This document shows positions 44,533-58,749 of a stretch of DNA of 64,000 nucleotides, piece by piece. Where the stretch lies: positions 1,200-65,199 of the forward strand of contig CAVRGY010000005.1 in NCBI GenBank assembly GCA_963720825.1. The letters are read 5' to 3'. The DNA is from an uncultured Chloroflexia bacterium. Lineage in GTDB: Bacteria; Chloroflexota; Limnocylindria; Limnocylindrales; CSP1-4. Each line of letters begins with the position of its first letter. Within the stretch, counting starts at the first letter, position 1. The position numbers and the translations under genes were made by a program. The notes below the pieces were generated by a model that had not been told where the DNA came from, searched no databases, and saw only the letters and a program-made list of their open reading frames with translations.

Positions 44533-45652
44533 TCAGCCGTTGCGGCCCCGCGCGTCGACCGCCCAGTGCTCCGCGCGCCCGTCCGGCTGGACCGCGACGA
44601 ACGAGGCCACGAGATCGACCACGGGGCAGATGTGGTTCGGGACGATCGCGATCACGTCACCCAGCGCCGGACCGGCGGTCGTGGCCGGCAGGGATACGAC
44701 GCCGTGATAGTCGTTGACGCGCTCGATCACGGCACCCGGCCACCGGGCGAGGAGCCCGTAGCCCTCCACGAACGAGGGCAGGTCCTTGGTCAGCGCCTTG
44801 GCCCCGGCGTCGAGCACGACCCGCTCGCGGCCGGCCGAGACAACGGTCGTCGCGACCACGGCCGCGATGCCGTCGGCGTCGATCGCGTCGAGGGCCCACT
44901 GCTGGCGATCGCCGAGCACGTACGTTCCGGCGCGGATCTCGTTGACCCGTCCCTGCGCCGCGAGCGTCCGGGTCGGGGTCGACCCCGCGCTGATCGTCCG
45001 GACCTCGAACCCGGCGGCCTCCAGCGCCCGCGTTCCGGCCTCGAGCGTGGTCGACTCGTCGAGCGCGGCCGCACCCGCGGCACCGGGTCGGTAGCCATGC
45101 CCGCCGTGCGTGAACACGCCCTCGATCTCGAGGCCCGCCCGGCTGGCGGCGATCGCCACCTGGACGGCGTCACCGGGGGTCGCGACGCCCGTCCGGTGAC
45201 CGCCCGAGTCGAGCTCGACGAGCACCCGCAGCCGGCGGCGAGATCCGCGGACCGCTGCCGCCAGCCGCTCCGCGCCGGCCGCCGAATCGACGCCGACGCG
45301 CACGTCCGACGCGTCGTGGAGCGCACGCAGCCGGGCAGCCTTGGGGCCGTCGGCCCAGACCGGGTAGGCGATGAACAGGTCCCGCAGGCCGGCCAGCGCG
45401 AACACCTCGGCCTCGCCCAGCGTGCCGACCGTCAGCCCGGCGGCCCCGGCCTCGAGCTGCATCCGTGCGATGCGGACGCTCTTGTGGGTCTTGGCGTGCG
45501 GCCGCAGCCGAACGCCGCGGGCATCGAGCGTCGCCTGGAGCCGCTCGATGTTCGCCTGCAACCCGGTCCACGAACACCACCAGGGCGGGGGTGTCGAGCC
45601 CCGGCGGGAGCGCGGGCAGCGGGATCGGCTGGGGCGGACGGACATCGGGCAC
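44533..45652 (-). pseudogene. PLP-dependent D-threonine-aldolase / D-serine-dehydratase-like enzyme (alanine racemase N-terminal fold); one frame change
   Basis: LDTPALVVFVDR is in one frame. LQANIERLQATLDARGVRLRPHAKTHKS...(PLP lysine) is in the next. The shift is at the run 45562-45564. Confidence 0.72.
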
Positions 45653-45742
45653 GCCGGCAGGATACGCGTCGTGCGCCGCCGCCTTGCGCCGGGTCTGCGC
45701 TTCGGGCAAGGTGACGGGGTCCAGCCACAGCCCGGAGGGTCC

Positions 45743-46123
45743 ATGTCCCGGAGCGTCCTCATCGTCGACGACGAGCAGCACATCCGGCTGCTGATCGAGC
45801 AGGCGCTCGAGGACCTGGTGGACGACGGCGTGGAGCTGTACACGGCGGCCGACGGCGACGAGGCACTCGACGTCATCCGCGCGCAGCGCCCCGACCTCGT
45901 GTTCCTGGACGTGATGATGCCGCGCCGCAACGGCCTCGACGTGTGCCGCGCCGTCCGGGGCGAGCTCGGCATGCACGAACCGCACATCGTGCTGCTCACC
46001 GCGAAGGGCCAGGCCGACGACCAGGACGCCGGCATCGCCGCGGGCGCCAACCGCTACCTGACCAAGCCGTTCGACCCCGATGAGCTCATGACGATCGCGC
46101 GCGAGGTCCTCGGCGCGGCATGA
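45743..46123 (+). CDS. single-domain response regulator (receiver)
   Basis: Reads VLIVDDEQHIRLL...PDLVFLDVMMP...LLTAKG...YLTKPF. Confidence 0.85.
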   Translation: MSRSVLIVDDEQHIRLLIEQALEDLVDDGVELYTAADGDEALDVIRAQRPDLVFLDVMMPRRNGLDVCRAVRGELGMHEPHIVLLTAKGQADDQDAGIAAGANRYLTKPFDPDELMTIAREVLGAA

Positions 46124-46906
46124 CCGAGCTGCGCCGCCTCATCGTCCGGCACCGGCACGTCGCGCCCATGGTGTCGGCGCTGCTCGCCGGAATGGACGCC
46201 GGGGTCCGGATCCTCGACGCGGAGGGCGAGGTGGTCCTCGAGCGTGCGGGCGCGGGAGCCGGCGAGGCGCCGGCACGCGGTGACCGTGGACGGCGAGACG
46301 CTGGGCTGGGTCGAGGGCGGGCGCACCGCCCGCGGCGTCGCGGCCGTGCTGTCGTACGCGGCGGCGCGGGAGCGTGACAAGCGGGCGCTCGCGACCGAGG
46401 CGCTGGAGCGGTACCGCGAGCTGTCGCTGATCTACGACCTCGCGGCGATCATCGGCGGCCACACCGATCTCGAGCCGATCGTCGACACGGCGGTCGCCGA
46501 GCTGTCGCGGCTGCCCGGCGACGCCCGGGGGTTCCTGCTGCTGGCCGATGCGGACGGCACGCTTCGGCCCCCGGACGGCGTCGAGGCCGGCGACGGGCCC
46601 GTGGTGGCCGGCAGGATCGGAGATGGGATCGTGGGCACGGTCGCCGCATCGGGGTCTGCGGAGGTGGTCGAGGACGTCGCGTCAGATCCGCGGGCGAACG
46701 ACGCCGAGCGTCGGGCGGACACGGTGGTCGCGGCACCGCTGCTTGCCGACGGCCGGACGATCGGGGTCGTCGGCGCCACCGGGACCGGCGGCGCGTTCCG
46801 GGCCGCCGACCTCAAGGTGGTGACGGCCATTGCGGCCCTCGCCGGACCGGCGATCGGCCGGGCGCTGGCGGCCGGCGCAGGAACGGCGCGCGGAGCCAAC
46901 CGCTGA
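46120..46906 (+). pseudogene. GAF-domain protein, one frame change near the N-terminus
   Basis: The ATG overlaps the receiver stop as ATGA. The frame changes at about 46270 (..AGAGAGEA / RHAVTVDGETLGWVEGG). A GAF-like region follows (RGFLLLADADGTLRPP...IVGTVAASG...AAPLLADGRTIGVVGA). Confidence 0.6.
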
Positions 46907-46950
46907 GCTTCCGCGCCGAACGGTCGGCTCCGATCCCGCGGGGGCGCCGC

Positions 46951-48369
46951 GTGCCCGGTGGCGGCGAGGGAGCCGTGCCGGTGGAGGAGGACCTGCGGCG
47001 GCGTCTCGCCGAGCTGTCGGGCATCAATGCGATCGGGATCGCGCTCGGATCGACGCTGGACCTCGAAACGCTGGTCGATCGCGGGCTGGCCGAGATCGTC
47101 GGGCGCCTCGGCTTCTCGCGTGGGCTGATGGCACTGGTTGACCCGGCCGCCGGCAGCGTCGGTGACTGCCGCGTTGCGGGCGGCCCGCCGGGTGTCGGGC
47201 TGCTGGTCGCGGAGCTGCAGGTGGCCATCGATGACCGGGATGCCGCGCTGGCACGCGTGGCGCGGGCCGACGGTCCGCTGCTGTTCCACGACGCGGACCA
47301 CGATGCCGACGAGGCAACCAGGCGGCTCGCGGCGGTGCTCGGCGCGACTGGCTTCATGGGCACGCCGATGGTCACCCAGGGGCGGGTCGTGGGCGTGCTG
47401 CTCGTCGACGACCGCCGCGAGGGCCGGGCCCTGGAGCCGACGGACGGGCCGCTCCTGTACACGGTCGGCTCACTGTTCGCCGGCGCGATCGAGTCCGCCC
47501 GGCTGTACGCGCAGCTCGAGGCGCAGAACCGCGCCCTCGAGGGCAAGGTCGCCGAGCGGACCCGGAACCTCGTCCAGGCGATGGCCGAGGCGCAGGAGGC
47601 GCGCGCGGCGGCGGAGTCGGCGAACGACGCCAAGAGCCGGTTCCTTGCCAACATCTCGCACGAGCTGCGGACGCCGCTCACGTCCGTCGTCGGCTTTGCG
47701 AAGCTGAGCCGGAGGCGCCTCGAGGAGGTGGTGGCTCCCGTGGTCCCGCTGGACGAGCCGAAGGTCGAGCGCGCGCTGCGGCAGGTCCGGGAGAACCTCG
47801 GGATCATCGCCGCCGAGGGCGACCGGCTCACGGTGCTGATCAACGATCTGCTCGACCTCGCCAAGATCGAGGCCGGGCGGCTCGAGTGGCGCATGGCGCG
47901 GATCCAGCTGGAGGACGTCGTGCGCCAGGGGCTCGCCGCGACGGCCTCGCTGTTCGAGGTGAGCGGGCTGACGCCCGAGGTCGTGGTCGCGGACGGCCTG
48001 CCCGCCATCGACGGCGATCGCGACCGGCTGGTCCAGGTGCTCATCAACCTCGTATCCAACGCGGTCAAGTTCACGCCGGCCGGAACGATCGGGGTGCGGG
48101 TGGCGCCGGATGGCGACCAGGTCCGGGTCGAGGTGACGGACTCGGGTCGCGGGATCCCGGACGCCGACCTGGAGCGGATCTTCGAGCCGTTCCGCCAGGC
48201 GTCGGACACGCTTGCCGACGGACCCAAGGGCACCGGCCTTGGCCTGCCGATCTCGAAGCAGATCGTCGAGGCGCATGGCGGGACGATGGGTGTCTCGTCG
48301 GTCGTGGGTGCCGGCAGCACATTCTGGTTCCGCATCCCTGCCGCGAATGTGGTGGACGCGACGACCTGA
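46951..48369 (+). CDS. GAF-sensor histidine kinase
   Basis: It has a GAF region, a coiled coil, the H-box SRFLANISHELRTPLTSV, the N-box LINLVSNAVKFT and the G-boxes DSGRGI / GTGLGLPISK. Confidence 0.9.
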   Translation: MPGGGEGAVPVEEDLRRRLAELSGINAIGIALGSTLDLETLVDRGLAEIVGRLGFSRGLMALVDPAAGSVGDCRVAGGPPGVGLLVAELQVAIDDRDAALARVARADGPLLFHDADHDADEATRRLAAVLGATGFMGTPMVTQGRVVGVLLVDDRREGRALEPTDGPLLYTVGSLFAGAIESARLYAQLEAQNRALEGKVAERTRNLVQAMAEAQEARAAAESANDAKSRFLANISHELRTPLTSVVGFAKLSRRRLEEVVAPVVPLDEPKVERALRQVRENLGIIAAEGDRLTVLINDLLDLAKIEAGRLEWRMARIQLEDVVRQGLAATASLFEVSGLTPEVVVADGLPAIDGDRDRLVQVLINLVSNAVKFTPAGTIGVRVAPDGDQVRVEVTDSGRGIPDADLERIFEPFRQASDTLADGPKGTGLGLPISKQIVEAHGGTMGVSSVVGAGSTFWFRIPAANVVDATT

Positions 48370-48559
48370 GTCGCGGTCCTTCCCCGTGGCGCTTCACGGT
48401 TCCGGCCGGCCCACCGGCGGCGGTGCGGCGCCGCAACTCCGCCTTAAGGCAGGCGGGTACCAGTACCAATGGGTCATTCCTCCTGGTACCGCGCAGCGCG
48501 TACGTTCGTTTCCTCCTCGTGAGGGGCCTACCTCGCACTCGTCTGAAGAGGGAATCATC

Positions 48560-48658
48560 ATGAAGCCCACGCTCAAGTGGTACGCGCACCGCGCCACGCT
48601 CTTCCTCGGCAGCCTCGCCGCGTTCGCCTTCGTGATCAACGGCGCCAAGCGCTGGTAG
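48560..48658 (+). CDS. 32-aa hydrophobic microprotein ending in GAKRW (copy 1)
   Basis: MKPTLKWYAHRATLFLGSLAAFAFVINGAKRW. All 32 codons end in G or C. GAGGGA lies 6 nt upstream of the ATG. A paralogue is at 54450-54548. Confidence 0.55.
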   Translation: MKPTLKWYAHRATLFLGSLAAFAFVINGAKRW

Positions 48659-48682: not shown

Positions 48683-48710
48683 GAGCCGTCGGGGGCCCAC
48701 CCGGCGGCTC
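48683..48710 (+). terminator. hairpin downstream of the microprotein gene
   Basis: gagccgtcggg / ggccca / cccggcggctc forms an 11-bp stem with one G-U pair and is followed by ttggatt. It sits between convergent genes. Confidence 0.45.
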
Positions 48711-48792
48711 TTGGATTCCCGGGACGGCGCTTCGACCGGTCGGGCGGGCTCGGTCAGCCGGGGCGGGCTCGGTCCGCTGCGACGGCGCTCGG

Positions 48793-53638: not shown

Positions 53639-54208
53639 TCAGCCTCCGGAGCTGGGCACCGGCAGCGCGGGCGGGCTCGCGAGCGGCACACCGGCGGCAT
53701 CGACGAACCTCACCGCAACGACCATCCCCTTCTGCCAGTGGCCGGGAATGTGGCAGCCGACAAACCAGCCAGCGGACGCGGAGGCGGCGTCGACCGGGAC
53801 GGTCCAGGTCACGTCGACCCGCTGGCCCGAGCCCACGACGACGCGCACGCCGCGAAACCCGGGCGGCGCCGCGACAACGGGCGTCGGGCCCGGCGGGCTG
53901 CCGACGGTCGCACCCTCCGCGGCCTCCCAGGCAAGCTGGTCGCCGAGATCTCCGATGATCGCCTCGTGCGTCTCCAGCCCGCCATTGACGACGTGGAGCA
54001 GCACGGTCTCGCCGGGCACGAGATCGACCACCGAGGGCACGAACGCGTAATCGTGGGCGACGATGTTGATCTCGCGCGGCGACGCGCTCGTCCCGGGCGT
54101 GATGGGCGGCGTGCCGGGTGGCGCAGCCGCGTCGCAGGACGAGACGCCGAGCGCAGCCGCGACGGCCAGCAGGAGCAGCAGCGGGAACCGGGCGGGTGAC
54201 GGACGCAT
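53639..54208 (-). CDS. cupredoxin-domain lipoprotein (type-1 copper site)
   Basis: Starts MRPSPARFPLLLLLAVAAALGVSSC (lipobox). It also has LETHEA and GCHIPGHWQKGM (His...Cys-x2-His-x4-Met). Confidence 0.8.
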   Translation of the reverse strand: MRPSPARFPLLLLLAVAAALGVSSCDAAAPPGTPPITPGTSASPREINIVAHDYAFVPSVVDLVPGETVLLHVVNGGLETHEAIIGDLGDQLAWEAAEGATVGSPPGPTPVVAAPPGFRGVRVVVGSGQRVDVTWTVPVDAASASAGWFVGCHIPGHWQKGMVVAVRFVDAAGVPLASPPALPVPSSGG

Positions 54209-54301
54209 CGCGCCATGATGCGTCAGGTCGCGCCGATGCCCATGCAGCGGGATCGCTCCTTGACACCGCGCGGCGGGGGCCCGTAGCGTGCGCGCCACCT
54301 C

Positions 54302-54339
54302 CAGCGGCGGCCGGGTCCATCAGCGGCGGCCGGGTCCAT
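54302..54339. repeat. perfect 19-nt tandem duplication
   Basis: cagcggcggccgggtccat occurs twice, back to back. It lies in the spacer between microprotein copy 2 and the cupredoxin gene. Confidence 0.9.
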
Positions 54340-54449
54340 CTGCGGCACCGCATCCGCGGCTGACCCGACGGCATAAGGGTCCCTGTCGACGCCGCGGGCG
54401 GCCTACCAGCGGCGGCCGTGCTCGCAGGCGCCCGAGCCCGGTTCCGAGT

Positions 54450-54548
54450 TCACCATCGCTTTGCTCCCTCGATGAGCACGGCCATGGCCAGCGCAAGGAT
54501 CGGCGCGGCGGTCCGGGTCGCCAGGACACGGCGAACAAGGGCGTCCAT
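54450..54548 (-). CDS. 32-aa hydrophobic microprotein ending in GAKRW (copy 2)
   Basis: MDALVRRVLATRTAAPILALAMAVLIEGAKRW. GGAGG lies 8 nt upstream of the ATG. It has the same length and C-terminal pentapeptide as copy 1. Confidence 0.55.
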   Translation of the reverse strand: MDALVRRVLATRTAAPILALAMAVLIEGAKRW

Positions 54549-54651
54549 CGGCACTACCTCCACCCGGCAAGCCGGATGCAACGACCGCGGGCCGATCCCT
54601 CCAAGGAGTGCCCGATCGAGCGACGCGGGCATGCAGCATCGCCAATGGCGC

Positions 54652-55431
54652 TTATCTGCGACTTATCTCATCGGCGAGCCTCGGACCCTCGACGGGCGAC
54701 ATCCGACAACGCGCGACGAGGTAGACCGGCACGGGCGTTCGATCCGGGGCGCGCGCGACCCAGTCGTCGCCGGGCACCGGCTCGACGGCGACCTCCACGA
54801 TCAGGCCGTGGCGTCGAAGGCCGTTCAGATAGGTCGAAAGCATCCGATGGTTCGCCCCGACCTGGCCGCGGATCCCGCTGTTCTGTGCCAACCACCAGCC
54901 CTCGGCGTAGTAGCCGCCCGTGGCCGGCCAGCTGCTGGGCGCGTCGGCATCCCAGCCAGGGAAGCACGGATGCAGGATCGAGAACACGAACCAGCCGTCG
55001 GGCACCAGGACCCGGCCGACCGTCGAGAGGGCCCCGTCCAGGTCATCGATATCGCTGAGGCCGAAGTTGCAGACCACACCGTCGAACGACCGACCCGGCA
55101 ACTCGTTCGGTCGCGCGGCATCAGCGTGGACGTACTCGATCGCGAGCGGAAAGTCCCTTTCGATCGCACGAGCTCGTTGCAGCAGCTCGCCTGAAAGGTC
55201 GACCGCGACCACCGCGCCACCCCGTCTCGCCAATTCCCGCGCGACCCGTCCCTGCCCGCACGCGAGTTCGAGCAAGCGGAGGCCGGCGCAGTCGGGCAGA
55301 AGCTCGAGCAGGGCGGCCGTCGCCGGGTCGGTGACGTCCTCGCCGACCAGCCGGTCATAGAACTGGGGGATCCCGTCGTACCGGGCGCGTCGCTCTGTCA
55401 CGGCTTGTTCCGTCGGCACCACACCAACCAC
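54652..55431 (-). CDS. class I SAM-dependent methyltransferase
   Basis: Reads LLELACGQGRVARELARRGGAVVAVDLS ... FDGVVCNFGLSDIDDL ... VLVPDGWFVFS. The proposed GTG start overlaps the YHS gene stop (TAGTG). The start is uncertain. Confidence 0.78.
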   Translation of the reverse strand: MVGVVPTEQAVTERRARYDGIPQFYDRLVGEDVTDPATAALLELLPDCAGLRLLELACGQGRVARELARRGGAVVAVDLSGELLQRARAIERDFPLAIEYVHADAARPNELPGRSFDGVVCNFGLSDIDDLDGALSTVGRVLVPDGWFVFSILHPCFPGWDADAPSSWPATGGYYAEGWWLAQNSGIRGQVGANHRMLSTYLNGLRRHGLIVEVAVEPVPGDDWVARAPDRTPVPVYLVARCRMSPVEGPRLADEISRR

Positions 55432-55601
55432 TACATCGACGGTTCGTAGTCCTCGGCCAGGTACTTCTCCGGGTCGTCCTTGAACTCGAGCAGGCAGCCC
55501 TTGCCGCAGAACCAGTAGGTCTTGCCGTCGTGCTCGAGCGACAGCTGCGACGTCGCGGTGTCGACGTCCATGCCGCATACCGGGTCCTTGACGATGGCCA
55601 T
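55431..55601 (-). CDS. YHS-domain (TRASH-like metal-binding) small protein
   Basis: MAIVKDPVCGMDVDTATSQLSLEHDGKTYWFCGKGCLLEFKDDPEKYL. Confidence 0.85.
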   Translation of the reverse strand: MAIVKDPVCGMDVDTATSQLSLEHDGKTYWFCGKGCLLEFKDDPEKYLAEDYEPSM

Positions 55602-55719
55602 TGCGATCTCCAGTGGTTTGAGCCGGTGGTCGATGTTGAGATCGAGGCTACCGCAGCCCGAATGGATCGGCCGAACGGCCCTCTCCCGCGCGGACGGCCG
55701 GGTTGTAGCATCGGCCACC

Positions 55720-56064
55720 ATGGACGATCCGACCACCACCGACGACCGCCGCGCCGCGCTCCTGGCCGAGCGGGCCCGGGTCGTCAGCGAGCTCAAGGAG
55801 CTCCGGATCGAGGCGCCGGGGCCGATGACGTACGGCTCGCAGGCCGCTGCGGCCAGCCACGTCGTCGACCAGCAGCGCGACCTCGCCCTGCGCGATCGCA
55901 ACGAGCAGCACCTGGCGGCCGTCGAGGCCGCGCTCGGGCGTCTCGACGCCGGCACCTTCGGACGGTGCACGTCGTGCCACCGATCGGTCGGTGAACCGCG
56001 GCTCGACGCGCTGCCCTGGGCCGCCCTGTGCATCGAGTGCCAGCGCGCCGTCCCGCGTCGATGA
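55720..56064 (+). CDS. TraR/DksA-family C4 zinc-finger protein
   Basis: Reads RLDAGTFGRCTSCHRSVGEPRLDALPWAALCIECQ. Confidence 0.85.
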   Translation: MDDPTTTDDRRAALLAERARVVSELKELRIEAPGPMTYGSQAAAASHVVDQQRDLALRDRNEQHLAAVEAALGRLDAGTFGRCTSCHRSVGEPRLDALPWAALCIECQRAVPRR

Positions 56065-57068
56065 CGGACGAGCGTCCCCTGCCGGCACTTGTCGAGCTGC
56101 CCGCCATCCTCGCCGCCGCCGAGACGCTGCGGGGCGTCGCGGTCCGGACGCCGCTGGTGCCGTTCGGGCGCCCGGAGCTTCGCCAGTGGCTCAAGGCCGA
56201 GTCGCTCCAGCCGATCGGCGCGTTCAAGCTGCGCGGCGCCTACACCGCCGCGGCGGCCCTGTCGCCGGAAGAGCGGGCGAACGGCCTGATCACCTACTCG
56301 TCGGGCAACCATGCGCAGGGCGTCGCCCGCGCCGCGCGGCTGTTCGGCGTCCCGGCGGTGATCGTGATGCCATCGGACGCCCCCGCGCTCAAGCGCGCCC
56401 GGGTGGAGGCGGACGGCGCGGAGATCGTCGTCGTCGGGACGGCCAGCGATGAGCGTCGGCGCATCGCGGAGGAGATCGCCGCGGCGCGCGGCCTGGCGAT
56501 CATCCCGCCCTACGACGACCCCCGCATCGTTGCCGGCCAGGGCACGGTGGGCCTCGAGATCGCGGAGGACATGCCCGACGTGGCGGCGGTCCTGGTGCCG
56601 ATCGGTGGCGGCGGCCTGGCCGCCGGGGTGTGCGCGGCGATCACCGCGCTCGCGCCGGAGGCCCGGCTGATCGGCGTGGAGCCCGAGCTCGCGGCGGACG
56701 CGCGCGACTCGCTCGCGCAGGACCGGATCGTCGCCTGGCCGGCCGAGAAGGTGAGCCGCACGATCGCCGACGGCACCCGGACGCAATCGATCGGCCGCCT
56801 CAACTTCGCTCACCTTCGGGCACAGCTCGATGCCGTGATCGTCGTCAGCGAGGACGAGATCGCCGCCGCCGTGCGGCTGGCCGCGGAGGAGGCCCGGCTC
56901 GTGGTCGAGCCCTCCGGGGCGCTGCCGATCGCAGCGATGCGGTTCCATGCGGAGGAGGCCGGCCTGGCGGCGATCGATGGACCGATCGTCGGCGTCGTGT
57001 CCGGCGGCAACGTGGATCCCGACCGGTACCGGGCCTACCTCGAGGCGCCGATCCCGCCGAGCCACTGA
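56061..57068 (+). CDS. PLP-dependent threonine/serine dehydratase (Trp-synthase beta fold)
   Basis: Reads ESLQPIGAFKLRGAY (PLP lysine), SSGNHAQGVA and VPIGGGGLAAG. The ATG overlaps the upstream stop as ATGA. Confidence 0.88.
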   Translation: MTDERPLPALVELPAILAAAETLRGVAVRTPLVPFGRPELRQWLKAESLQPIGAFKLRGAYTAAAALSPEERANGLITYSSGNHAQGVARAARLFGVPAVIVMPSDAPALKRARVEADGAEIVVVGTASDERRRIAEEIAAARGLAIIPPYDDPRIVAGQGTVGLEIAEDMPDVAAVLVPIGGGGLAAGVCAAITALAPEARLIGVEPELAADARDSLAQDRIVAWPAEKVSRTIADGTRTQSIGRLNFAHLRAQLDAVIVVSEDEIAAAVRLAAEEARLVVEPSGALPIAAMRFHAEEAGLAAIDGPIVGVVSGGNVDPDRYRAYLEAPIPPSH

Positions 57069-57205
57069 GGCCTGCGGCCACCGGATTTCCACCGGCCAGC
57101 TGGTGCCAGCGAACGACGTCACGCGTCGTACGTGGAGCTTGCGGGCGAAACCTGGCCACGAAACGCTCAGGTCGTTGCAACGGGGCGCTGTGGCGTGCGG
57201 CCTGC

Positions 57206-57399
57206 GCCACTCAACGATGGGGTGCGTGCTCGGCCAGAAGCTTCTGCCCACGACGCGCCTGATCGTTGAGTGGCCAACTGCCACCCCTGACCAGCGCCGC
57301 CCGCCGAACGACGTGAACGGCAGCACCGAGTTGCCGGTGGCGATGGCCCGGCGAAATGTGGTACGCCGCGGCGCACGACGCACAGGATCGTTGAGTGGC
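57206..57399. repeat. three copies of the 13-mer ATCGTTGAGTGGC (one inverted, two direct)
   Basis: gccactcaacgat is at 57206-57218. atcgttgagtggc is at 57262-57274 and 57387-57399. All lie in a 464-nt convergent intergenic region. Confidence 0.8.
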
Positions 57400-57479
57400 C
57401 GCCTCGTCATGAGCGGTCGGCGGCTGGCCGCCGGAGGGCCGGGAATGGCCGGCCCGGGAACGGACCGCGGTCTCGGGAC

Positions 57480-57513
57480 CCGGCGCACCTTCGGCACCGG
57501 CGCACCTTCGGAA
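57480..57513. repeat. 17-nt tandem duplication (one mismatch)
   Basis: ccggcgcaccttcggca / ccggcgcaccttcggaa. Confidence 0.85.
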
Positions 57514-57532
57514 CATCGATCCCGCCAGGAGT

Positions 57533-58749
57533 CTAAGGCCCGCCCTGCTCCCCGGCTTCCGCGGCCCGACGTGCCGCAAGCGCAACCTCGCGCTCCCGGA
57601 TCGCGGCCCGCTGCGGCTCCAGCCGGCGCTCCTCGCCGACCGTCCGCCGCTCCTCGTCGCGCATCCAGACCGCGACCAGCAGGAGCACGGTGACGAGGAA
57701 CGCGAAGTCGCCGCCCAGCCACATGATGGCGCCCGCCAGCTGCTGGTCCTCGAGCGGCGTCGGGCCCCACGAGCGCACGGTTGTCGCGTAGTGGTGGTAG
57801 AGCGGGGTGGATGCCATGTAGACGGCGACGGCGAGGAACGTCATCTGTGGCATCTGGATGCCGGCGTACATGACCCGGACCGCGGAGCTCATCCGCCACG
57901 GCGACGGGTCGGGACCGACGATCGGCCACCAGAACAGCAGCGCCGAGGCCAGGAACAGGGCGTGCTCCAGCATGTGGACGGGCACGTTCTCGAGCGACAG
58001 GTCGAACAGCGGTGAGAAATGGGTGCCCCACATGACCGCCGCGAACAGGACTGCGGCGACGACCGGGAACGACAGCGCCCTCAGCACGCGCGAGTGCAGG
58101 ACCGGCAGGATCCAGCGATGCCGCGTCTCGGCCGACGACGCGCGCAGGATCAGCGTGATCGGCCCTGCGTACAGGAGCAGCGGCGGGGCGATCAGGGTCA
58201 GCAGCAGGTGCTGGACCATGTGATCCGAGAACAGCGTCGTGTCGTACAGGCCGATCCCGGAGTCGAGCGCGAACAGGATCGTAGCCGATCCCACGCGAGC
58301 CAGGCGACGGTGCGGGCGCGCGGCACCGGGTTGTCGGGATGCGCCCGGTTGACGCGGGTGAGGCCGGCGCGCCAGAGCAGGATGGCGGCCAGCGCCGGCA
58401 GCCAGACGGTGGGATCGAACGACCAGTCGAGCAGGAACGACACCAATGTCGGCTCGCCCAGCAGCCGGCCCCCGTGGGCGAGCGCGGCGGGGACGGCGAC
58501 GAGCAGGCCGATGGGGACGGCGAGGAGCAGGCCGATGACGGGCGCGCCGGCAGCCCTGGCCGACCGGACGCCGACGCGGGCCGGTCGCGGGGCGGCGGCC
58601 GATAGGGCGGCGGCCGACGCGGCGGCCGGCGCGGCGGCGGACGTCGCGGCGCGGGCGCGGCGATCTGGCTGTCGCTCCTGACGAGGAATCACGCCCGTAT
58701 TGTCCCGCGATTCGCGACACGACCCGGTCGCGCGGGCCCCACGTGCCAT
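57533..58749 (-). pseudogene. ctaG: cytochrome c oxidase assembly factor CtaG (Caa3_CtaG family), one frame change
   Basis: N-terminal TM region ..FDPTVWLPALAAILLWRAGLTRVNRAHP..TVAWLAW is in one frame. GSATILFALDSGIGLYDTTLFSDHMVQHLLL...HMLEHALF... is in the next. The shift is at the run 58290-58292. The start is uncertain. Confidence 0.8.

Follow-up and report, generated by a model that had tools for sequence, protein, structure and literature searches.

Do two very short open reading frames (ORFs) of an uncultured Chloroflexia bacterium, which lie about 6 kb apart on opposite strands and end in the same five residues, encode real proteins and, if so, of what kind? Both occur in a 64,000-nucleotide stretch of contig CAVRGY010000005.1 (hereafter, the window, meaning the whole stretch analysed), with a guanine-cytosine (GC) content of 71.9%. 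Copy 1, on the plus strand, and copy 2, on the minus strand, are referred to as type A and type B, respectively; each comprises 32 codons, as first described. An earlier, sequence-only reading had taken them for a pair of paralogous membrane microproteins. Judged by their conservation in other genomes, the two ORFs are real paralogous protein-coding genes of an undescribed, lineage-restricted family, and their products are very probably real membrane microproteins.

Two paralogous genes and their relatives

A translation check returned both ORFs with the peptides, Shine-Dalgarno (SD) sequences and codon differences that the sequence-only reading had reported (Table 1); copies 1 and 2 have a GC content at third codon positions (GC3) of 1.00 and 0.78, respectively. 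The word GAKRW appears twice in the six-frame translation of the window, both times with a stop codon next to it, against chance expectations from residue frequencies of about 0.03 for GAKRW and about 0.0003 for GAKRW-stop. As a control, however, we found 32 distinct five-residue pre-stop tails common to at least two frames of the same GC-rich window, so the shared tail alone is unconvincing evidence. What decides that these are genes is their conservation in other genomes, and not the tail match.

We recovered ca. 60 relatives, all of them from genomes and metagenomes of Limnocylindria-type Chloroflexota with a high GC content. When one genome per species (185,579 species) was scanned with a degenerate DNA pattern encoding [VL]-I-x-G-A-K-R-W-stop, 71 stretches were retrieved. 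About half were chance matches, from unrelated taxa and lacking a hydrophobic ORF; the ca. 35 true members all come from metagenome-assembled genomes labelled "uncultured Chloroflexia" or Candidatus Limnocylindrales, with 69–75% GC. A hidden Markov model (HMM) search over 1.84 billion representative proteins, which was not tied to the tail word, produced 26 representatives at E ≤ 0.001. Of these, at least 24 are proteins of 30–34 residues or over-extended calls of such ORFs. Their tails read GAKRW, SAKRW, TAKRW(S), GGKRW, SGKRWLA and GAKRWFM, with K-R-W invariant throughout; as this set was not chosen by its tail, it is less biased than those based on the pattern. Finally, a protein search with a concatenated query yielded three close relatives of copy 1, on contigs with the same gene order as in the window, one of which also contains copy 2, substituted but with an intact frame. 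All known members belong to a single uncultured group of soil and freshwater Chloroflexota. The expectation that gene finders would miss these ORFs does not wholly hold, since ca. 26 cluster representatives are present in public protein sets, although all of them are unnamed.

Across the relatives, the length of 30–36 residues, the start codon, the SD sequence, the hydrophobic helix and a near-C-terminal [A/G]-K-R-W are kept, with start and SD conserved in essentially all of the 38 loci. The SD is AAGGGAA or AAGGAA, 5–9 nucleotides before the start, in essentially all type A loci, and GGAGG or AGGAGG, 6–9 nucleotides before the start, in all type B loci; each of the two types thereby has a ribosome-binding site of its own that is conserved. 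None of the loci examined contains a frame-breaking indel. The ratio of nonsynonymous to synonymous variation (pN/pS) is 0.47 for type A and 0.78 for type B, the latter being an overestimate because it derives from an ungapped alignment of quite divergent sequences. Column conservation in type A is 0.84 at the first codon position, 0.89 at the second and 0.75 at the third, which is the most variable, and the glycine of the tail is encoded across genomes by GGC, GGA, GGG or GGT. When one profile is built only from type A and another only from type B, the two align over 17 C-terminal columns with a probability of 97.7%, both sets being partly ascertained on the tail. There are two paralogues per genome. 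Neither peptide has any match at E ≤ 10 in Pfam, NCBIfam, PADLOC or PHROGs; a PDB profile search returned only hits of E ≥ 0.38; and Rfam gave nothing at gathering score in the window, with only E ≥ 2 around each gene.

With 30–36 residues and one predicted transmembrane helix, the products belong among the single-pass membrane proteins of up to 50 residues. The AlphaFold2 model of type A is a single helix spanning residues 3–31 (mean predicted local distance difference test score, pLDDT, 84). The hydrophobic core comprises 15–19 residues with a mean Kyte-Doolittle value of 2.0–2.25; the summed Hessa dG is −0.98 for the type A core (ATLFLGSLAAFAFVI) and +2.4, which is marginal, for that of type B (VLATRTAAPILALAMAVLI). 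Among 35 distinct type A sequences, R11, A12, L16, G17, A20, A21, G28 and A29 are 86–100% conserved, and K30, R31 and W32 are invariant (35 of 35). The conserved positions 12, 16/17, 20/21 and 28/29 recur about every four residues, and the small residues therefore lie on one helical face, which is the usual signature of helix-helix packing. The 15 distinct type B relatives have 30–36 residues, a basic N-terminus with an invariant R6, usually a proline in mid-helix, and an invariant G-A-K-R-W, followed in four of them by one or two additional residues (P, QR or RW). Both types end in an almost invariant [D/E/N]-G-A-K-R-W. Towards the C-terminus, D/E27 and the terminal carboxylate balance K30 and R31, leaving that side close to neutral, so that the higher net charge is on the N-terminal side; by the positive-inside rule, this excess of positive charge would place the N-terminus inside and the C-terminus outside (N-in/C-out). 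Together, the ca. 60 relatives, in which frame, length, start and SD are kept, the alignment of the two profiles, the modelled helix and the lack of curated matches bear out the central claim of the sequence-only reading, namely a paralogous pair of single-helix membrane microproteins from an undescribed family.

A second micro-ORF overlapping type B, and a copper-flavoured neighbourhood

All 20 type B genes examined are followed by a second micro-ORF (ORF2), which in the window starts within the last codons of type B. Its ATG consists of the last base of the arginine codon CGA plus the TG of TGG (AAG CGA TGG TGA, read as cgATGgTGA), and the Glu-Gly-Ala codons of type B provide an internal SD, GAGGGAG, that sits 7 nucleotides upstream. 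In most of the 20 loci there is likewise a purine-rich GGAG or GGGG 7–11 nucleotides before the ORF2 start. The overlapping start is a CGA-derived ATG in nearly all of them, with a rare AGA in locus L056 and GTG in locus L001. ORF2 has 16–19 codons and a freely variable N-terminal half; its stop is always TAG and it always ends in C-x-H-[GSA]-R-R-W-TAG. This ending was found in 11 of 11 loci when the search demanded only a [KR][KR]W-stop tail, and it is encoded by synonymous codons (Cys TGC/TGT, His CAC/CAT, Arg CGC/CGG/AGG). Type B and ORF2, in this order, thus make up an autonomous micro-operon of two cistrons; the predicted product of ORF2 is a 17-residue soluble Cys/His peptide ending in G-R-R-W. 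A −1 frameshift fusion of both ORFs was considered and rejected: the junction lacks a slippery heptamer (GCC AAG CGA in most loci), for which reason we prefer re-initiation.

The overlap bears on the codons of the shared tail. The sequence-only reading had argued that the different synonymous codons of the two copies reveal selection on the peptide. For this pair the argument fails, because the rare codons GGA and CGA of copy 2 are dictated by their building the SD and the ATG of ORF2. In fact, the tail glycine codon is GGA in seven of ten type B loci versus GGC in type A, a bias that arises because the codon forms the ORF2 SD, whereas the type A tail (GGC GCC AAG CGC TGG TAG) contains no overlapping ORF. 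Selection at the peptide level is nevertheless shown by the codon variation across genomes described above.

Copy 2 lies between genes with a copper flavour. Downstream of ORF2 is a gene for a cupredoxin lipoprotein, which matches Pfam Cupredoxin_1 (E = 0.01) and weakly resembles CopI (NCBIfam, E = 9e-11, with a score far short of the cut-off for that family), and which is followed by genes for a ferredoxin, a periplasmic binding protein, a methyltransferase-like protein and a pyrroline-5-carboxylate (P5C) reductase. Upstream, the usual neighbour is a gene for a 56-residue YHS-domain protein: in the ten loci with enough flank it is on the same strand as type B, and the distance from its end to the end of ORF2 is 296–663 nucleotides. 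In the window alone, the YHS gene and copy 2 are separated by a gene for a class I S-adenosylmethionine (SAM) methyltransferase; it is absent from related loci having both YHS and type B. A link to copper or oxidase genes had been proposed at the outset. It appears to hold for copy 2, placed between the YHS protein and the CopI-like cupredoxin, albeit loosely, and not for copy 1.

The closest known system in layout is socAB of Mycobacterium tuberculosis, named for "small ORF induced by copper A and B" and belonging to the RicR regulon (PMC3944814). It is a lineage-restricted pair of adjacent small ORFs in a copper-homeostasis setting (PMC3944814), which recalls type B and ORF2 with their YHS and CopI-like cupredoxin neighbours; the likeness is one of layout, and homology is not expected.

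Proposed role and competing explanations

On balance, we lean towards types A and B being N-in/C-out single-pass accessory membrane proteins that pack on a partner through their small-residue face. This modest preference combines high confidence that they are genuine membrane microproteins and far less certainty as to what they do. The positive N-terminus would stay in the cytoplasm and the D/E-G-A-K-R-W tail would be at the outer membrane interface, with its tryptophan as an interfacial anchor, while the small-residue face (A12, L16/G17, A20/A21, G28/A29) would pack against another transmembrane helix. A and B might then be accessory subunits, either stabilising or regulatory, of a membrane partner, or form homo- or hetero-oligomers, in the manner of KdpF, CydX, AcrZ and MgtS; for type B the likely context would be copper handling. 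With these four proteins they share the size (ca. 30–50 residues), the single helix with a small-residue face, the conserved SD and the frequent fate of being unnamed or missed in annotation. They differ in that KdpF, CydX, AcrZ and MgtS are encoded in or beside their partner's operon, or else their partner has been demonstrated, whereas type A stands alone, and in that they have no counterpart of the invariant C-terminal A-K-R-W; A and B match no curated family. A and B are thus a new family within the known class of small single-pass membrane proteins.

Several observations weigh against this role. We identified no partner for either A or B, and type A was never found in an operon with a membrane complex. 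Its sole constant neighbour is a convergent proline dehydrogenase gene, and even this adjacency may lack functional meaning because the region is syntenic throughout the clade. The core is short (ca. 15 residues in type A), and the insertion energy of type B is marginal. In a set of 65 metagenome loci retrieved via the downstream cupredoxin gene, and hence independently of the peptide, only ten contain type B, and in at least one locus a YHS gene lies beside the cupredoxin gene and B is missing; since each also occurs without it, B is not an obligate partner of the cupredoxin or of the YHS protein. The invariance of K-R-W is partly a matter of ascertainment in the pattern-based sets, although the HMM set retains it throughout, and every member of the family comes from an uncultured organism. 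Lastly, the soluble ORF2 product shares the [KR]-R-W tail, so the tail could act in the cytoplasm or on the ribosome, in contradiction to an N-in/C-out topology.

Alternatively, the peptides could resemble type I toxins, which damage the membrane when made and whose mRNA is silenced by RNA structure and/or antisense RNA; we consider this unlikely. They do share with the Ldr, Fst and PepA1-type toxins a size of ca. 30–35 residues, a single hydrophobic helix with an aromatic and basic C-terminal tail, stand-alone genes, several paralogues (two per genome in this case) and structured, conserved untranslated regions (UTRs). Indeed, the terminator-like hairpin is the most conserved segment of the type A locus, with a mean column identity of 0.91 versus 0.83 for the ORF, and the loops of both type A hairpins share GGGGCC(C/T)ACC. 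However, the strand opposite type A has no conserved TAnnnT between −230 and +160, other promoter types being outside the scan, the SD is not obviously sequestered, and PADLOC gave no match. Conservation over the whole length, a fixed syntenic site and a specific invariant motif are more typical of a structural or interaction role, and the co-translation of type B with a second peptide is not a known type I layout.

We think it improbable that A and B are precursors of exported or processed peptides, such as a pheromone of the SHP/XIP type or a ribosomally synthesized and post-translationally modified peptide (RiPP), with the helix as an export or leader segment, D/E-G-A-K-R-W as the mature product and the E-H-G-R-R-W of ORF2 as a related one. 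Their layout, in which a hydrophobic stretch comes after a basic N-terminus and before a conserved C-terminal hexapeptide starting at D/E/N, mirrors that of the streptococcal SHP precursors, the type B tail EGAKRW and the ORF2 tail EHGRRW are alike, and type A is often just downstream of a GAF histidine kinase gene with a receiver protein. Yet this kinase cluster is absent in many loci, and the neighbourhoods of ca. 30 loci contain no conserved peptidase (including an Eep-like protease), exporter, radical-SAM or other maturase, or dedicated receptor of the Rgg/ComR type beside either gene. Moreover, conservation of A12, L16, G17, A20 and A21 equals that of the tail, something one would not expect if the leader were disposable; ORF2 lacks an export segment, and the SHP/XIP systems belong to another phylum.

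About as speculative is a reading in which the basic-Arg-Trp C-terminus is a functional module, carried both on a membrane helix (A and B) and on a soluble Cys/His peptide (ORF2), the overlap fixing the proportion of B to ORF2. Under it, one possibility is that the membrane-anchored and soluble pair senses copper, or passes it, between the cytoplasmic YHS protein and the extracytoplasmic cupredoxin; another is that the tail acts on the terminating ribosome, driving re-initiation.

We doubt even more that the ORFs are cis-acting leader peptides, functionless in themselves, in which translation or termination at [K/R]-R-W-stop controls the downstream cupredoxin operon. Nascent peptides that block termination do exist, e.g. 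PepNL, but a comparison with the PepNL paper for a similar termination-arrest tail gave no sign of relatedness (PMC11890864). Type B and ORF2 are upstream of the cupredoxin, ferredoxin and binding protein genes on the same strand, and both end in basic-Arg-Trp-stop and are translationally coupled. On the other hand, type A is closed by a strong terminator-like hairpin with no gene of the same strand beyond it, several genomes have convergent genes instead of the cupredoxin gene after B-ORF2, the cupredoxin gene has its own conserved promoter-like CATCAT-N6-ATG, and most cupredoxin loci have no B; conservation of the hydrophobic helix over its whole length would also be left unexplained.

That A and B are only chance frames over a conserved DNA or RNA element is highly improbable: the abundance of shared tails in the window and the strong conservation of the flanking non-coding segments would agree with it, but start, SD, frame and length are kept in ca. 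60 loci with no frame-breaking indel in those examined, the third-position variation fits coding, there is synonymous turnover within the invariant tail, and Rfam has no match.

Two fortuitous resemblances were also discarded. Weak PDB hits via [KR]-W-x-A-x-H ... F-L-G-[ST]-[IL]-x-A recall the beta subunit of cytochrome b559 (PsbF), a single-helix subunit of ca. 40 residues, but the best E value is 0.43 (range 0.4–7) and the alignment needs a gap of five residues. Of the 35 type A members, 13 have His and 15 have Gln at the position of the PsbF heme-ligand histidine, which type B lacks. Photosystem II is not known from the host lineage. Matches to a pyrroloquinoline quinone (PQQ) beta-propeller blade (GTIYFGS...AINPDGTEKW) have E values of ca. 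1e4 for each repeat, and the A and B peptides are far more hydrophobic.

If the finding were confirmed, the very thin functional knowledge of the Limnocylindria-type Chloroflexota, which are abundant in soil and freshwater but almost uncultured, would gain a cleanly defined microprotein family that has two paralogues in each genome, transcription units with clear limits and a motif by which it can be diagnosed. Likewise, the type B locus is a compact natural case of overlapping, translationally coupled micro-ORFs, in which "synonymous" codons encode the SD and start of the next gene; this calls for caution with codon-based arguments and in the annotation of small ORFs. The possible copper link, through the YHS protein, the Cys/His peptide and the CopI-like cupredoxin, is a concrete starting point for tests.

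Anatomy and surroundings of the two loci

Table 1. Features of the type A and type B loci, with their positions in the window.
Feature	Position	Strand	Remarks
Receiver-domain protein, stand-alone GAF protein and GAF-HisKA-HATPase kinase	45371-48369	+	Upstream of copy 1
Conserved upstream block of type A, GGTACCAGTACC-N4-GGGTCAT (GGGYCAT across loci)	48456..48477	+	Near-invariant in 24-27 type A loci
TACGTT, candidate −10 hexamer (TAnnnT)	48501..48506	+	T, A and final T invariant in 24 aligned loci
5'UTR hairpin GTGAGG-GGCCTA-CCTCGC	48519..48536	+	In most type A loci; in the minimum free energy (MFE) fold of the putative transcript
SD of type A, GAGGGA	48548..48553	+	6 nucleotides before ATG
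Type A gene (copy 1), MKPTLKWYAHRATLFLGSLAAFAFVINGAKRW then stop	48560..48658	+	32 residues
Terminator-like hairpin GAGCCGTCGGG-GGCCCA-CCCGGCGGCTC then TTGGATTCC	48683..48719	+	Between type A stop and proline dehydrogenase (PRODH) stop (48793)
Cupredoxin lipoprotein	53639..54211	-	Downstream of B-ORF2; lipobox LGVSSC, C-x4-H-x4-M type-1 copper site
ORF2, MVNSEPGSGACEHGRRW	54403..54456	-	Micro-ORF of 17 residues; overlaps type B stop
Type B gene (copy 2), MDALVRRVLATRTAAPILALAMAVLIEGAKRW then stop	54450..54548	-	32 residues
Internal SD for ORF2, GAGGGAG	54464..54470	-	From type B Glu-Gly-Ala codons (GAG GGA Gca)
SD of type B, GGAGG	54557..54561	-	8 nucleotides before ATG
Upstream motif of type B, ATAAGTCGCAGATAAG (TAAG-N7-TAAG)	54651..54666	-	Conserved in 17 aligned type B loci
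Class I SAM methyltransferase	54652-55578	-	Between YHS gene and copy 2
YHS-domain (metal-binding) protein	55431..55601	-	56 residues; usual upstream neighbour of B-ORF2

The anatomy of the type A locus was deduced from an alignment of 27 loci, with 24 aligned loci for the TAnnnT motif. The exact 12-mer of the upstream block occurs once in the window, and the block might be an operator, a regulator binding site or an upstream promoter element. Its GGTACCAGTACC part can be read either as a GTACC direct repeat or as a GGTAC inverted repeat, followed by GGGYCAT. A reverse-strand micro-ORF (MTHWYWYP...) starting from the invariant CAT of the block was rejected, as it shows premature stops, lengths from 3 to more than 49 residues, and ATA starts. 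TACGTT, which we infer to act as a promoter, is the sole conserved TAnnnT on either strand between −230 and +160 of type A. The 5'UTR hairpin displays what by eye are compensatory changes (GCGAGG/CCTCGC, GCGGGG/CCCCGC and GCGGAC/GUUCGC); RNAalifold found no consensus on the 5'UTR alignment, which is poor, so covariation was judged by eye. The terminator-like hairpin is predicted in the MFE fold and is unique in the window. A simple T-tract terminator scan did not report it, and scans for consensus promoters and terminators, which are not suited to DNA so rich in GC, retrieved nothing in either locus. The GGGGCC(C/T)ACC held by both the 5'UTR loop (48521-48534, plus strand) and the terminator loop (48691-48702, plus strand) includes the self-complementary GGCC, through which a loop-loop or 5'-3' interaction is conceivable.

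Having its own upstream block, TAnnnT, UTR hairpin and terminator, and only a convergent gene downstream, type A is a self-contained monocistronic unit. It is always tail-to-tail with proline dehydrogenase, usually 80–200 nucleotides apart (135 in the window), although in two loci an insertion parts both genes. The upstream neighbour varies between a GAF histidine kinase cluster, a D-serine-dehydratase-like gene and an HpcH aldolase gene. The GAF-HisKA-HATPase kinase encoded upstream of copy 1 has no obvious membrane segment, and its cluster is absent in some relatives.

As for type B, the TAAG-N7-TAAG motif has a single match in the window and type B also has a structured leader; the motif is presumably functional. 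The stop codon of the methyltransferase gene falls inside this motif. At the start of the cupredoxin gene, ca. 12 loci conserve CGCATCAT-N5-6-ATG (CATCAT-N6-ATG; about 54209-54226, minus strand) without an SD, and the position of the CATCAT motif suggests a −10 box for a leaderless cupredoxin mRNA. An 866-codon minus-strand ORF (55431-58031) is spurious: only its last 56 codons, which are the YHS gene, belong to a true gene, and the remainder lies mostly antisense to a gene for a pyridoxal phosphate (PLP)-dependent enzyme (PALP; 56028-57068, plus strand). Long shadow ORFs of this kind are typical of high-GC DNA.

Between ORF2 and the cupredoxin gene there is a tandem direct repeat of two copies of ATGGACCCGGCCGCCGCTG (54302-54339, minus strand), not seen in the other loci compared over this stretch. 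The 12-mer GGCCGCCGCTGG, which also ends ORF2 (54406-54417), has one further exact copy and one with a single mismatch. Convergent ABC (ATP-binding cassette) permease genes directly follow B-ORF2 in loci L049, L064 and L108. The spacer after ORF2 (about 54340-54400, minus strand; also in L031, L064, L074, L049 and L108) reads TCAGCCGCG... and resembles the 3' end of these permease genes; in the window, it has the look of a leftover from a transporter cluster that was lost or moved elsewhere. Finally, locus L121, which comes from a more distant relative, contains, at about 2530-2640 on the plus strand and ca. 1 kb downstream of a YHS gene, a divergent type-B-like peptide (MPSLVSRIVVRFRLLVPAAALIAAALAETAGRRWC), with no obvious ORF2 after it and a tail intermediate between AKRW and GRRW.

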